From an uncultured Gemmatimonadales bacterium (GTDB taxonomy: Bacteria; Gemmatimonadota; Gemmatimonadetes; Gemmatimonadales; Gemmatimonadaceae): a stretch of 64,000 bases of DNA. Position 1 is the stretch's first letter; every line of letters begins with the position of its first letter. Location of the stretch: contig OY969695.1 in assembly GCA_963701965.1 (NCBI GenBank), forward strand, positions 2,752,001-2,816,000, written 5' to 3'. The notes below the pieces were generated by a model. That model ran no database searches, was not told where the DNA came from, and saw nothing but the letters and a program-made list of their open reading frames with translations. Below are positions 42,246 to 54,096 of the stretch, piece after piece. Position numbers and translations under genes: made by a program.

Positions 42246-42285
42246 TTGGCGCGCGTCATCGGCGAGGGCCAAGCATCATTGGAGC

Positions 42286-43326
42286 ATGACTGAGACAATC
42301 GTGAAAGACGAGGAGCGGTGGGCGGCGCTCGACGCCCGGGACCGCCGCTACGATGGCGCGTTCGTCTACGCCGTCCGTACCACGGGGGTGTACTGCCGGC
42401 CGAGCTGTCCCTCGAAGAGGGCGCGGCCGCAGAACGTCGCGTTTTTCGGGACGGCCGCGGAGGCCGAGCAGGCGGGGTTTCGCGCGTGCCGGCGGTGCCG
42501 GCCGCACGCCGCGGATGGGGCGCCGATCGAGCGATCCGTCCGGGCGGCGCAAGCGTATCTCGATGCGCGGGTCGGCGAGCGGGTGCCGCTCCAAAAGCTG
42601 GCGCGCGCCGTGGGCTTGAGCCCGTGGCATGTGCAGCGGGCGTTCACGCGGCTCGTCGGCGTGTCGCCCAAGGCGTATCAGGACGCGCGGCGGCGCGAGG
42701 TGTTCAAGGACCGGTTGCGCGATGGCGCGACGGTGAGCCGCGCGGCTATCGAGGCGGGTCTCGGTCCGTCGGCGCGCGACGGCGCGCCGTTGGGCATGAG
42801 TGCAGGGACGTATCGCCGCGGTGGACGCGGAGAGTCGATCCGCTACACGGTCGTCCCCACATTGCTCGGCGCGTTGCTCGTCGGGACGACGGATCGCGGC
42901 GTGGCGACGGTCTTGCTCGGCAACGGTGAGCTGGAGCTCGAGGCGGCGCTCGGCGCCGAGTTTCCCGCGGCCGACATCGCGCGCGATGACGCGGCCGTCG
43001 GAGCGATCGTGCGCGACGTGGTCGACGCGATCGAGCGCGGCGACAGCGGCGCGACGCTGCCGCTCGACGTCCGCGGTACGGCGTTCCAGATGCGCGTCTG
43101 GCACGCGCTGCGCGAGATCCCGCGCGGAGCGACGCGCACGTACTCGGAGATCGCGGCGGCCATCGGCCAACCGCGCGCGGTGCGCGCCGTCGCCAGCGCC
43201 ATCGCCGCCAATCGACTCGCGGTGCTCGTCCCCTGCCACCGCGCGGTGCGCGCGGATGGCACGCCCGGCGGTTATCGCTGGGGGCCAGAACGGAAGCGCC
43301 GGTTGCTCGAGCGCGAGCGCGCATGA
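42286..43326 (+). CDS. ada: Bifunctional Ada regulator / O6-methylguanine-DNA methyltransferase
   Basis: TTGVYCRPSC and FRACRRC zinc site, AraC HTH, PCHR active site. Confidence 0.95.
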   Translation: MTETIVKDEERWAALDARDRRYDGAFVYAVRTTGVYCRPSCPSKRARPQNVAFFGTAAEAEQAGFRACRRCRPHAADGAPIERSVRAAQAYLDARVGERVPLQKLARAVGLSPWHVQRAFTRLVGVSPKAYQDARRREVFKDRLRDGATVSRAAIEAGLGPSARDGAPLGMSAGTYRRGGRGESIRYTVVPTLLGALLVGTTDRGVATVLLGNGELELEAALGAEFPAADIARDDAAVGAIVRDVVDAIERGDSGATLPLDVRGTAFQMRVWHALREIPRGATRTYSEIAAAIGQPRAVRAVASAIAANRLAVLVPCHRAVRADGTPGGYRWGPERKRRLLERERA

Positions 43327-43331
43327 TGCGA

Positions 43332-43363
43332 AAAGTCTCCGAGGAGAAATCCTCGGAGACTTT
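43332..43363. terminator. Perfect 14-bp hairpin; likely bidirectional terminator between ada and the minus-strand tRNA cassette
   Basis: AAAGTCTCCGAGGA-GAAA-TCCTCGGAGACTTT. Confidence 0.85.
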
Positions 43364-43384
43364 CACTACGTGGTGGAAATTAAC

Positions 43385-43415
43385 CACGCCGGCTTGACAA
43401 GTGCCACGAATGTAT
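43385..43415 (-). repeat. Anti-anticodon box of cassette 1
   Basis: 43389-43402 is the exact reverse complement of 43505-43518 (anticodon arm); context CATAcATTCgtGGCAC-N12-CGTGG. Confidence 0.85.
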
Positions 43416-43461
43416 GCAATCGCACCGGCGCGGTCAACCGGTAGTTTGGCGCTAACTAGCG

Positions 43462-43545
43462 TGCCCGGAGCGGGACTCGAACCCGCACGACCTCGCGGTC
43501 GCCGACTTGTCAAGCCGGTGTGTCTACCAATTCCACCATCCGGGC
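43462..43545 (-). tRNA. Type II tRNA with tRNA-Leu body and GAC (Val) anticodon
   Basis: GCCCGGA TG GTGG AATTGGTAG ACAC A CCGGC TT-GAC-AA GTCGG CGACC-GCGA-GGTCG T GCGGG TTCGAGT CCCGC TCCGGGC A. Confidence 0.9.
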
Positions 43546-43654
43546 ACTCTTCGCGATGGACGGAATTGGATGTTGCGACACGAGCTTCGACTGTCGTTCG
43601 CCACTAGCTAGCGGTGGCGAATCTCGCGCTACGTGAGGCGCGCGTCGTCATCGT
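43546..43654 (-). ncRNA. Conserved structured leader of tRNA cassette 1
   Basis: Blocks shared with 52484-52588: ACGATGACG, ATTCG, CGCTAGYTAGTGGCG, CGTGTCGCARCATCCARTT and AGAGT. Confidence 0.65.
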
Positions 43655-43714
43655 TACACTTCGTACATCATCGGGAACGCGGAACTCGACGCCCTGACGC
43701 GGGATAAGAGCCGC

Positions 43715-44557
43715 ATGCCAACACAACTCTTCAGTGGTCTCGTGTTCGGCGAGTCGCCGCGATGGCGTGACGGACGCCTCTGGGTCTCGGACTGGGGCGC
43801 GCGCGAAATCGTGGCGATCAATGGAGCGGGCAAGAGCGAGGTCATCGTTGCCGCGCCGTCCTTTCCGTCGTGCATCGAGTTTCTGCCGGACGGACGGCTC
43901 CTCATGGTGTCCGCGCTCGCCGGGCTGCTGTTGCGCCGCGAACCGAATGGCACGGTGGTGACGCACGCGGATTTGAACGCCGCCAGCAAGCCCGCGTGGA
44001 ACGACATCGTCGTCGATGGGCGCGGCAACATCTTCGTGAACAGCGTCGGCTTCGATCTCTCCAAAGGCGAGCCGTTCGCTCCGGGCTCCGCCGCCGTCGT
44101 CACGCCCGACGGCGCGGCGCGCCGCGTGGCCGCGGGATTCGCGTTCCCCAACGGCATGGCCGTGACGCGCGACAACGCGACGTTGATCGTCGCCGAGTCC
44201 TACGGCAAAAAACTCACGGCGCTAGACATCGCCGCCGATGGCAGCCTGTCGAACCAGCGCGTGTGGGCCGACCTCGGCGACGGCGTCCCGGATGGCATCT
44301 GCATCAATGCCGAGAACGCCGTGTGGTACGCCGACGTCCCCAACAAGCGTTGCGTGCGCGTGCGCGAGGGCGGCGAAGTCCTGGACACGGTCACGCTCGA
44401 CCAGGGGTGCTTTGCCTGCATGCTCGGCGGCTCGGACGGGAAGACGCTATTCATCGTGGCGCGCGAATGGCGGGGCGTCAAGACGATGGCCGACCAGCGC
44501 CGCGTCGGTCAAGTGCTCACAGTGACCGCGCCCGCGGCGCACGCCGGCTGGCCCTAG
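43715..44557 (+). CDS. SMP-30/gluconolactonase family protein
   Basis: FGESPRW, NDIVVD, FPNGMAV and PDGIC. Confidence 0.9.
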   Translation: MPTQLFSGLVFGESPRWRDGRLWVSDWGAREIVAINGAGKSEVIVAAPSFPSCIEFLPDGRLLMVSALAGLLLRREPNGTVVTHADLNAASKPAWNDIVVDGRGNIFVNSVGFDLSKGEPFAPGSAAVVTPDGAARRVAAGFAFPNGMAVTRDNATLIVAESYGKKLTALDIAADGSLSNQRVWADLGDGVPDGICINAENAVWYADVPNKRCVRVREGGEVLDTVTLDQGCFACMLGGSDGKTLFIVAREWRGVKTMADQRRVGQVLTVTAPAAHAGWP

Positions 44558-52483: not shown

Positions 52484-52588
52484 ACGATGACGGCTAGCGG
52501 CTCGAAGTGGAGATATTCGAGTCGCTAGTTAGTGGCGTGCAATGAGTGAGCCCGTGTCGCAGCATCCAGTTTCATCCGCGTGTAGAGT
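52484..52588 (+). ncRNA. Conserved structured leader of tRNA cassette 2
   Basis: Homologous to the reverse complement of 43546-43654. Confidence 0.65.
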
Positions 52589-52672
52589 GCCCGGATGGTG
52601 GAATTGGTAGACACGGCAAACTCGCAAATTGCCGACCGTAAGGTCGTGCGGGTTCGAATCCCGCTCCGGGCA
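52589..52672 (+). tRNA. Type II tRNA with tRNA-Leu body and CGC (Ala) anticodon
   Basis: GCCCGGA TG GTGG AATTGGTAG ACAC G GCAAA CT-CGC-AA ATTGC CGACC-GTAA-GGTCG T GCGGG TTCGAAT CCCGC TCCGGGC A; A31-A39 mismatch. Confidence 0.88.
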
Positions 52673-52710
52673 CGCTAGCTAGCGCCACATTGCGCGTCGC
52701 TTCCTGGTTT

Positions 52711-52743
52711 CATAGATTCAAGGCACTTGCGAGTTTGCCGTGG
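52711..52743 (+). repeat. Anti-anticodon box of cassette 2
   Basis: 52727-52742 TTGCGAGTTTGCCGTG is the exact reverse complement of 52612-52627; context CATAgATTCaaGGCAC-N12-CGTGG. Confidence 0.88.
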
Positions 52744-52776
52744 CGAGCCCCGGGGAGAGATCCTCGGGGTTCGTTT
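52743..52776 (+). terminator. Terminator-like hairpin after cassette 2
   Basis: GCGAGCCCCGGGGA-GAGA-TCCTCGGGGTTCGT (with GU pairs) followed by a short T run. Confidence 0.7.
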
Positions 52777-52795: not shown

Positions 52796-52831
52796 TTGAC
52801 TTTCGGGATATCTTCGGGTAGCGTTAGAGCG
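52796..52831 (+). promoter_or_regulatory. Sigma70 promoter for a probably leaderless radical SAM gene; TTCGGG-N5-TTCGGG repeat in the spacer
   Basis: TTGACT-17 nt-TAGCGT; GTG start 7 nt after the -10. Confidence 0.6.
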
Positions 52832-54096
52832 TGGAGGACAATCTCTCGCTCGAGCAAAAGCTGGTGCTGCTGACGTCGCTCGCAGCCGATGACCGTGAGG
52901 GTCCACCGCCGCCACGGCTGCGGAACACCAGCACCAAGAAAGTCGGCGCTCTGCGCCCCCTCAACATCCGCACCGTCCGCGTCGGGACATGGACCACGTC
53001 GCTGTTGCGCGTGCTCATGACCAACGCCTGTAGCTACAATTGCCACTACTGTCCGATGCGCCGCGATCGGAACATGCCGCGGACGCTGCTCAAGCCCGAG
53101 GAGTTGGTGAAGATCTTCCTCGCGGCCCACGCGCGCGGATGGTGCCAGGGATTGTTCATCACGACGGGTATTCCGGGCCGGCCGACCAAGATCATCGATG
53201 ACCTGATCCAGGTATTGGAGCTCCTCCGCGGGAAGCACCGGTTTGGCGGCTACATCCACGTCAAAATGCCGCCGGGCGGCGAGCCCGCGCAGATCGAGCG
53301 CTTGACTGCGTTGGCGAGCCGGGTGTCGATCAATCTGGAGACCCCCTGCGGCCAAACGCTCGAGCACATTGCGCCCGAAAAGAACCTCGACCAGACGCTG
53401 GTCAGCCTGGAACGGTCGCGCACGCTCGTCAACCACGCGCGCGAGGCCGAGCGGGACGGGAGGCGCCGGGACCCGCTCTCGCCGGGCGGTGTGGCCGGTA
53501 TGACCATGCAGTTCGTCGTCGGCGCGACCGCCGACAACGACCGGTCGATCATGGGTCGGGTGACGGCCCTCTACGCCGGCGGCGGCATTCATCACGCGCA
53601 CTTCTCGGCGTTCCGCCCGATCCGCGACACGCCGATGGAGTCCCAGCGGGCCACACCGGCGCTGAGGGAGCACCGGCTCTACCAGGTGGACTATCTGCTC
53701 CGGCAATACGGATTTTCGCCGGAGGAGATCGTCTATGGCGCCGGAGACAACATCCCACTGACCAATGATCCCAAGACCACTTGGGCGCTGGCGCACCCGG
53801 AGCGGTTTCCGGTCGAGCTGTCGAACGCGGATCTCGAATCCCTGCTCCGCGTGCCGGGAGTCGGCCCGACCTCGGCGCGGCGCATCGTCGAAGGCCGGCG
53901 CGGCACCACGATCCGGGGGTTGTCCGATCTGCGCCGGCTGGGGGTCGTGACGTCCCGGGCCGCGGGGTTCGTGGCGATTCGCGGCCGGCGGCTGAGCGAC
54001 ACCCGGTGGGCCGAGCAGCTGGGCATTCGGCGGCCCGAGGACGAGATTGGGACAAGGTGGCAGGCTTACGAAGTCAGTCCGGGGACTTTTCGATGA
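52831..54096 (+). CDS. Putative DNA modification/repair radical SAM protein with HhH (TIGR03916-like)
   Basis: MTNACSYNCHYC, GYIHVK, REHRLYQ.D.L.R.YGF and LLRVPGVGP. Confidence 0.88.
   Translation: MEDNLSLEQKLVLLTSLAADDREGPPPPRLRNTSTKKVGALRPLNIRTVRVGTWTTSLLRVLMTNACSYNCHYCPMRRDRNMPRTLLKPEELVKIFLAAHARGWCQGLFITTGIPGRPTKIIDDLIQVLELLRGKHRFGGYIHVKMPPGGEPAQIERLTALASRVSINLETPCGQTLEHIAPEKNLDQTLVSLERSRTLVNHAREAERDGRRRDPLSPGGVAGMTMQFVVGATADNDRSIMGRVTALYAGGGIHHAHFSAFRPIRDTPMESQRATPALREHRLYQVDYLLRQYGFSPEEIVYGAGDNIPLTNDPKTTWALAHPERFPVELSNADLESLLRVPGVGPTSARRIVEGRRGTTIRGLSDLRRLGVVTSRAAGFVAIRGRRLSDTRWAEQLGIRRPEDEIGTRWQAYEVSPGTFR

Follow-up and report, generated by a model that had tools for sequence, protein, structure and literature searches.

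Introduction

Bacterial tRNAs that break the genetic code have been described before, and the allo-tRNAs (PMC5389517) share with the gene reported here a long variable arm and a repertoire of many non-cognate anticodons. According to the available text of that source, their missense activity kills E. coli, as was found for allo-tRNAs that put Ser at Leu codons, and they are located near toxin-antitoxin genes. They differ from the present gene in architecture, since allo-tRNAs have an 8/4 or 9/3 acceptor branch, G73 or U73, Ser or Ala identity, and a long D stem with a tetraloop, whereas the gene described here has a 7/5 branch, A73, leucine-type identity, and a 3-bp D stem with an 11-nt loop. 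The word 'antisense' is absent from the available text of PMC5389517 and its supplement, and neither an anti-tRNA nor a locking leader is described there.

The tRNAProX/ProRSx pairs of Streptomyces and Kitasatospora (PMC10404621, PMC11415595) also combine the canonical body of one amino acid's tRNA with the anticodons of others, mistranslate, and are toxic if expressed constitutively; all three tRNAProX were toxic in E. coli, to differing degrees (PMC10404621). Their tRNAs have a Pro body and A34 and adjoin a dedicated ProRSx, whereas here the body is that of a Leu tRNA, charging by the host LeuRS is presumed, and an antisense RNA covaries with the tRNA. No dedicated synthetase partner was found: a single class I synthetase lies among 75 flanking ORFs, and its 60%-identical counterpart is far from the three copies in the genome. 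In their available texts, PMC10404621 and PMC11415595 contain neither 'antisense' nor 'toxin', and PMC7609411 does not contain 'antisense'.

Among toxin-antitoxin systems, the type I pattern of hok/Sok, tisB/IstR-1, and aapA1/IsoA1 consists of an inactive primary transcript, its processing, antisense binding, and cleavage by RNase III (PMC8167048), and hok/Sok as well as ToxIN are described as firing upon phage-induced transcription shut-off. The present locus resembles these systems in its predicted separate antisense RNA with a single-stranded 5' end and the occurrence of several paralogues with private putative antitoxins, and it may resemble them in an inactive transcript with paired 5' and 3' ends and in activation by processing (PMC8167048). 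A separate antisense gene complementary to the putative toxin RNA is recognizable in the sequence by its promoter, covarying complement, and hairpin. Unlike in type I systems, the effector would be an RNA and not a peptide, the antisense would target an anticodon arm and not a ribosome-loading site, and the putative antitoxin gene follows the tRNA gene in tandem, with the same orientation. In the type VIII systems SdsR/RyeA and CreTA, toxin and antitoxin are likewise both RNA, and CreT hits translation via tRNA (PMC11951105, PMC8167048, as far as their available texts go); CreT, unlike the tRNA gene described here, sequesters rare host tRNAs and is repressed at the DNA by CRISPR-Cas, SdsR represses mRNAs, and neither is itself a tRNA. 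No sequence or structure common to our locus and SdsR/RyeA or CreTA was found, Rfam recognizing the tRNA. By analogy, the module would work like type I but would formally be filed with type VIII.

A search of openly readable article texts and abstracts found neither this module, nor a bacterial tRNA with a dedicated anti-anticodon antisense RNA, nor a pair in which a tRNA is the toxin; a prior report may have gone unnoticed. Here, we describe a tRNA gene and its flanking elements that probably constitute a two-gene, all-RNA toxin-antitoxin module, in which the toxin would be a mistranslating, Leu-charged tRNA that inserts Leu at GUC and GUU unless a small RNA binds it.

A Leu-bodied tRNA gene with a Val anticodon

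The window, a 64,000-nucleotide stretch from the genome of an uncultured Gemmatimonadales bacterium (5.12 Mb, one contig, 67% GC), carries on its minus strand at 43462..43545 a gene that ARAGORN calls tRNA-Val(gac) (43461-43545, minus) and that matches Rfam RF00005 over 43462-43545 (minus) with 57.8 bits and an E value of 7e-10. By these matches and by its identity elements (PMC9976931), it is a Leu-bodied 7/5 tRNA gene and the putative toxin. The cloverleaf comprises a 7-bp acceptor stem, a 3-bp D stem with a Leu-type 11-nt loop, a 5-bp anticodon stem, the anticodon loop TTGACAA with the anticodon GAC (Val) at 43509-43511, a 4-bp variable stem, a 5-bp T stem, and A73; CCA is not encoded. A sister gene with the anticodon CGC (Ala) lies on the plus strand at 52589..52672 (ARAGORN, Rfam) and is without G3:U70, and a third Leu-bodied copy, also CGC, lies at C1:2559322-2559405. 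All three copies have flanks in common.

The first-pass annotation had described the two genes of the window as one scaffold with a differing anticodon arm, and a hand count supports this: 70 of 84 positions are the same, and of the 14 differences, 11 fall in position 26 and the anticodon arm, two in the variable loop, and one in the T loop. It had further argued against random decay and sequencing error, in agreement with the third copy and with the pairing kept in the wider family, where 98.7% of the cloverleaf cells are paired in 53 members of 84 nt (slid controls, 32-45%) and 21 of 24 pairs change on both sides. The genome survey proposed at that stage for further paralogues and normal tRNAs yielded all of them, namely the third copy, a normal short-arm Val(GAC) tRNA at C1:1834831, and a normal Ala(CGC) tRNA at C1:2240650. 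The gene at 43462 is thus not the sole Val(GAC) tRNA of the genome, a situation that would have spoken against recoding. The ordinary tRNA set is complete, and six tRNAs have Leu anticodons. Elsewhere in the genome, a degenerate short copy of tRNA-Val(GAC) was noted at C1:1809504-1809573 (minus), and a second tRNA-Ser(TGA) with encoded CCA beside a low-scoring tRNA-like sequence at C1:49350-49694 (minus).

A predicted small RNA gene complementary to the anticodon arm

In all three copies, a 14-16-nt perfect complement of the gene's own anticodon arm is found 55-74 nt past A73, within a constant order 3' of the tRNA and on its strand: a sigma70-type promoter, the complement, and a hairpin with a short T tail. 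At the Val-anticodon copy, the promoter (43409..43437, minus) comprises the -35 box TTGACC (43432-43437), a 17-nt spacer, and the -10 box TACATT (43409-43414). It is the sole promoter-like site within 43280-43760 (481 bases), where 0.1 is expected in shuffles, and its motif and spacing are common across the family. Transcription from it would yield a predicted anti-tRNA small RNA of ~72 nt (43331..43402, minus), the putative antitoxin, with a single-stranded 5' end, a small hairpin, and a terminator-like hairpin, its ends being deduced from the promoter and hairpin positions. The terminator-like hairpin (43331..43363, minus) has a tail of 4 T and also ends the converging ada gene; the terminator tool needs 5 T, so this hairpin and that of the sister were not called. 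The antisense segment (43385..43402, minus) matches tRNA nt 27-40 perfectly over 14 nt, followed by one mismatch and three further pairs, and bears the codon GTC. Its own tRNA is its sole target of at least 14 nt in the 5.1-Mb genome. In the predicted fold, the 5' end of the small RNA is the complement of nt 40-27, with the codon exposed as a single strand.

The sister copy repeats this arrangement on the plus strand, with a promoter at 52690..52718 (-35 TTGCGC, 17 nt, -10 TAGATT) that was recognized by motif and lies below the promoter-scan threshold, a 16-nt perfect complement to nt 23-38 of its own tRNA at 52727..52742, and a terminator-like hairpin at 52748..52769. The whole module occupies <300 nt. 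Beyond it, at 52797-52830 of the window, a promoter-like stretch of the radical SAM gene contains a spaced repeat that is kept in three congeners and may be a repressor box.

The predicted interactions are specific for the cognate partner. The small RNA of the Val copy pairs with its own tRNA at -31.7 kcal/mol, with the paralogues at -9.1 and -16.7, and with the normal Val(GAC) tRNA at -20.1, and its cofold gain is -11.1 kcal/mol with its own tRNA as against 0.0 and -0.1 with the two paralogues. For each of the three small RNAs in the genome, the best match is its own tRNA. A role of the small RNA as a toxin against normal tRNAs was ruled out, its own tRNA being a far better pairing partner. 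Visual inspection had also suggested a reverse-strand promoter in the trailer and a sigma54 site; both were dropped, as relatives have the same-strand sigma70 motif. Apart from the tRNA, Rfam found nothing in the module loci except a weak BjrC68 match under the gathering score.

A leader predicted to lock the precursor

Upstream of the tRNA, the leader (43546..43613, minus) is predicted, in a fold of 43440-43615, to pair with the 5' strand of the acceptor stem, the D arm, and the anticodon arm, while the trailer directly past A73 (43450..43461, minus) closes an outer helix with the 5' end of the leader. In this fold, which has a z score of -4.4 against 200 shuffles, the first 14 nt of the leader pair with the trailer, and the precursor is not a cloverleaf. 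With leaders no longer than 20 nt, the predicted acceptor-stem probability is 0.98; it falls to 0.10 at 30 nt and to 0.00 at 40-80 nt, suggesting a precursor that would fold into a tRNA after trimming.

The leader covaries with the anticodon arm across the three copies, all of which are predicted to be locked, including the sister, whose homologous leader (52519..52588, plus) was identified by sequence comparison and folding. Because the leader sequence follows the anticodon arm, a small peptide encoded by the leader is argued against. Family-wide, a lock is predicted in 30 of 66 members versus 0 of 24 Leu tRNAs, and the specificity of the leader for its own anticodon arm is weak, reaching the top tenth in 23 of 66. 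A promoter scan of 43280-43760 found no precursor promoter for the Val-anticodon copy.

Conservation of the tRNA and its predicted antisense partner

Of 151 related genomes, 44 gave BLAST matches to the sister module, most of these matches being ordinary Leu tRNAs, and 50 loci were parsed. A pattern combining the Leu D loop with a non-A35 anticodon returned 52 viral loci and at least 121 genome loci, and a pattern for A35 anticodons returned 14 matches, every one with GAC or CAC, from 10 of 401 genomes, together with at least 121 metagenome loci. An antisense match was counted from an ungapped duplex score of 11, taxon labels were taken from record titles, and 11 loci were left unparsed. Among the matches listed, antisense over the anticodon was present in 37 of 40 Gemmatimonadota-titled rows (in 33 of them preceded by the promoter at 0-8 nt, in 29 with the hairpin as well), in 9 of 13 Planctomycetota rows, and in 8 of 68 rows from other taxa, two of them with a promoter. 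The score of at least 11 was reached by 2 of 52 viral loci and by 0 of 27 controls with Leu anticodons. Rows first met later passed in 14 of 16 cases, and the two misses were TGG genes of another layout. For the Val/Ile class, antisense and promoter were each present in 12 of 12 members of the phylum sample; in metagenomes, intact cloverleaves with enough downstream DNA had antisense in 66 of 86 cases and a promoter in 59 among the matches listed, and seven of the 20 misses listed carried CAT.

Since the duplex score allowed G-U pairs and had picked its own rows, we recounted with a G-U-blind rule, the promoter motif followed by an exact complement of nt 34-38, on the 233 unique intact Leu-type cloverleaves among the matches listed. 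Within this set, 113 of 204 Leu bodies with non-Leu anticodons passed versus 0 of 29 with Leu anticodons. When downstream regions were swapped, a mean of 9.1 and a maximum of 18 passed in 200 rounds, compared with the 113 observed. The 91 of 204 that failed the strict rule, again among the matches listed, include other taxa, phages, and a branch in which the variable arm is targeted. Among the listed members that passed, the partner of nt 38 sits 8-11 nt past the -10 box in 106 of 113, and the anticodon stem pairs at 83% with its own partner versus 36% with partners of the same anticodon. Positions 34-36 are Watson-Crick in 64 of 64 members of the score-defined set and in 62, 61, and 61 of the 62 members of the A35 set. 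The predicted small RNA is 50-89 nt long in the 43 members with both ends called among the matches listed. A strict pattern of the element gave no match across genome contigs, plasmid records matched in 10 of 72,556 cases by the tRNA body only, and members with Phe anticodons were found in 0 of 29 genomes. On these comparisons, the tRNA family is real and conserved, and it is made up of putative code-breaking tRNAs, each paired with its own predicted anti-tRNA.

Viewed as DNA, the antisense segment repeats the anticodon arm in inverted orientation at a distance of 55-100 nt, and it could serve as an invertible switch or as a gene-conversion template that alters or inactivates the arm. We find such a role scarcely credible, as the inverted form was seen in 0 of 40 genomes, ~28 of them carriers, the segment keeps a fixed distance to the -10 box and has a hairpin behind it, and a recombinase neighbour is absent. 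G-U combinations are also in excess: beside the seed, G-U and A-C stand at 66 to 30 among the matches listed, which include kin that are not independent, as expected for a same-strand RNA; earlier, score-based counts were 41 to 32 and 35 to 21.

Several loci show other arrangements. Seven Planctomycetota-titled loci (L111, L118, L120, L144, L164, L172, L217) and two viral ones (L084, L055) form a branch of the module with GTC, TTC, or GCC anticodons and a promoter of the type TTGAC-17-GATAAT, whose small RNA complements mainly the variable arm and the 3' side of the anticodon stem. A second layout (L053, L073, the viral L096, L110, L145, L161, L215) has Leu bodies with TTA (ochre-reading), TGG, or TCC and no antisense; directly 3' of the L053 group lies a conserved ORF of 85-120 aa with a coiled-coil start and a possible HTH end. 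This layout includes a cultured Rhodovulum marinum record and may be a system of a tRNA and a protein partner. At five loci (L125, L211, L229, L238, L131), a Leu-bodied TGG (Pro) tRNA lacks the antisense and precedes a short Lys/Arg/Pro-rich ORF of 27-50 aa. At L124:390-600, titled Dehalococcoidia, a Leu body with TGC precedes a promoter motif and an 11-nt complement of stem and variable arm with a borderline score of 10.5. The Mariniphaga-titled L140 has three tandem, degenerate Leu-like tRNA repeats ~143 nt apart with TTA or TCA at the anticodon position, and one metagenome contig contains three CAC modules inside 12 kb (L301, L302, L343).

Amino acid identity and decoding

Leucine identity in E. 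coli is conferred by A73, A15-U48, G18G19, and A20a without need of the anticodon; C2-G71 blocks SerRS, and valine identity depends mainly on A35, C36, and A73, with G20, G3-C70, and U4-A69 as further ValRS determinants (PMC9976931); the AlaRS element is G3:U70 (PMC5389517). The tRNA at 43462 has A73, A15-U48, G18G19, A20a, C2-G71, and a long variable arm, and thereby every known bacterial leucine identity element; in place of a Leu anticodon it has GAC. In the family, A73 is present in 66 of 66 and 62 of 62 tRNAs, which the search pattern did not impose, C2-G71 in 52 of 53, and U48 in at least 90% of 53, while the variable stem is 99.5% paired and the acceptor branch is 7/5 in 53 of 53 aligned members. 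The pattern did fix the D-loop letters, position 20, and purine 37, so D-loop invariance is imposed, as is the T or C at position 20 in 62 of 62.

The first-pass annotation had pointed out the ValRS determinants A35, C36, and A73 as a caveat, and all three are indeed present. Compared with tRNA-Val, the gene at 43462 has U20, C3-G70, C4-G69, and a long arm in place of G20, G3-C70, U4-A69, and a short variable loop. Judging from these elements, charging with Leu, and with it insertion of Leu at GUC and GUU, is the likely activity, and some valylation is possible. The main ValRS determinants (PMC9976931) and the prevalence of GAC and CAC, the commonest anticodons with 54 of the 113 passing members among the matches listed (partly since one scan asked for them), would also suit a spare, Val-charged decoder, for example one that resists an anticodon nuclease and is held in reserve by the small RNA. 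We rate this as very unlikely, given the missing G20, G3-C70, and U4-A69 and the normal Val(GAC) tRNA in the genome. The Ala-anticodon members speak against it as well: G3:U70 occurs in 0 of 66 members, although 35 of 66 read Ala codons, so these tRNAs are not correctly chargeable, which rules out a family made up of correctly decoding tRNAs. The editing site of LeuRS would, in addition, tend to strip Val from a Leu body.

Thirteen anticodons occur among the 113 passing members listed, mostly Val and Ala, and Asp, Arg, Gly, Glu, Ser, Thr, and Pro anticodons are represented too. They track the commonest codons, with a Spearman coefficient of 0.46 over 45 codons; most members read codons of ranks 1-5 and 7-9, the non-Leu codons of the genome being ranked GCG 1, GCC 2, GGC 3, GTC 4, CGC 5, GAC 7, and GTG 8. 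This relation argues against a tRNA that acts without decoding, be it as a sponge, an inhibitor (of LeuRS or EF-Tu, or through stalled ribosomes), a scaffold, or a signal for processing, under control of the small RNA. A non-decoding role would fit the absence of U33 in 15 of 52 members and the weak anticodon stems of some, and there is precedent in some allo-tRNAs that were lethal to E. coli without suppressing (PMC5389517). We nevertheless consider it improbable, since purine 37 is as in decoding tRNAs (being part of the search pattern), the antisense is strictest precisely at positions 34-36, and the copy at 43462 itself has U33 and a 5-bp anticodon stem. Served by a predicted promoter of its own, the small RNA would not have to be cut out of the tRNA transcript.

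Distribution and genomic setting

Members with antisense occur in at least 21 of 401 phylum genomes (likely Gemmatimonadota, at least 90% complete), with one to five copies each and scattered over genera; the figure is a lower bound, as the patterns miss two known carriers (G051, G021). About 95% of the sampled genomes are without the module. The sister copy is syntenic in three congeners, while the site after ada is empty in four of four congeners having the gene, and across 172 nt the 43462 copy shares 85% identity with the one that a congener carries at the radical SAM site. The empty sites and this identity point to a recent duplicate, in which anticodon, stem, leader, and antisense are likely to have changed together. 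Anticodons also switch at orthologous positions: CTC, CGC, CGC, and CAC at a MutS/TonB site in four congeners, and CGC, GGA, and GGC beside Ro60 in three, each with a matching antisense. In two of these cases (L034, L040), the antisense match is shifted toward the variable arm.

Of the 75 flanking ORFs (the nearest on each side), 57 have Pfam matches, which include repair genes as well as three genes of antitoxin type; none of the 75 is an integrase or transposase. The flanking ORFs and the viral and plasmid searches gave no sign of mobility by a known route or of a defence-island setting. Genes that abut modules include those for Ada, radical SAM, MutS, UvrA, RuvB, topoisomerase IB, and RtcB (window 42262-43326 and 52831-54096; L006, L019, L031, L232); the radical SAM gene beside the sister module is one that we take to be a repair gene. 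In two congeners (L008, L040), the module lies in antisense orientation between Ro60/TROVE and rtcB genes, and the third copy of the present genome adjoins what is left of a Ro60 gene, a relic of 50 codons (C1:2559003-2559152), no RtcB match being found in the genome. Bacterial Y RNAs are tRNA mimics bound by Ro60. That the module is a Y RNA was ruled out, since a search of 14 loci against Rfam at E 1, including two that neighbour Ro60 genes, gave no Y RNA match, and this genome has only the relic.

The repair genes among the neighbours (Ada, MutS, UvrA, RuvB, RtcB/Ro60) and the one site kept in four congeners could indicate a regulated, adaptive mistranslation, in which a little Leu at Val and Ala codons would serve as a tuned stress response and the small RNA as its threshold or off-switch. 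Val and Ala anticodons indeed make up 31 of 39 in the phylum sample, against a codon share estimated at about a quarter, and in the available text of PMC10404621 the least toxic tRNAProX is the most widespread and antibiotic tolerance from mistranslation is mentioned. We hold this explanation to be unlikely, though deserving of attention, because anticodons for Asp, Arg, Gly, Glu, Ser, Thr, and Pro exist too, because anticodons switch freely at the orthologous sites above, which argues against one specific useful recoding, and because genomes hold up to five copies with private antisense partners while most sampled genomes have none.

Proposed mechanism

The first-pass annotation had read the gene as a Val-to-Leu recoder. 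Its Leu body, its swappable anticodon arm, and the likely Val-to-Leu activity stand, whereas the free-running, unaccompanied tRNA does not: with a predicted antisense gene 3' and a predicted locking leader 5', the tRNA makes up only half of a module, which suggests a repressed and probably toxic tRNA. A harmless tRNA would give a cell no reason to maintain a silencer that is private to it and matches its sequence.

RNase P requires a folded tRNA. The primary transcript would be locked by its leader, and RNase P cleavage and CCA addition are predicted to be held up until the leader has slowly been shortened to less than ~30 nt. The short RNA from the stronger promoter would meet the refolded tRNA codon-to-anticodon in the loop and zip down the stem, and the resulting duplex would either block decoding or be passed to RNase III. 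Once the locus disappears or transcription ceases, the small RNA may be the first to decay, letting the stored precursor mature, by analogy with hok/Sok, tisB/IstR-1, and aapA1/IsoA1. Leu would then be misincorporated at some of the commonest codons and the cell might arrest, with addiction, dormancy, or abortive infection as the conceivable outcome by the same analogy. The anticodon stems may have diverged to give every copy an antidote of its own.

The patchy, multicopy distribution, with gains and losses, speaks for the toxin reading. Against it, the bias toward Val and Ala anticodons implies mild substitutions by Leu, and tolerated mistranslation would explain it equally well, as would a short mutational distance from Leu anticodons; moreover, the lock is predicted in 30 of 66 members only, no precursor promoter was found for the 43462 copy, and the sister is syntenic in three congeners. 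On balance, we lean slightly toward the wider proposal of a toxin-antitoxin class built wholly from the genetic code, with a tRNA as the toxin, an anti-tRNA that displays the codon, a leader-locked store, target codon and antidote reprogrammed together, at least 13 anticodons, a variable-arm branch in Planctomycetota and some phages, and firing when phage or stress stops transcription.

Significance

Annotation based on the anticodon mislabels such genes as Val or Ala tRNAs. Natural mistranslating tRNAs such as the allo-tRNAs and tRNAProX are toxic in E. coli; here, a predicted control element adjoins the gene. As the module would need host enzymes alone, each step is testable in the laboratory, and the module offers a natural switch for conditional mistranslation and for the silencing of a tRNA.
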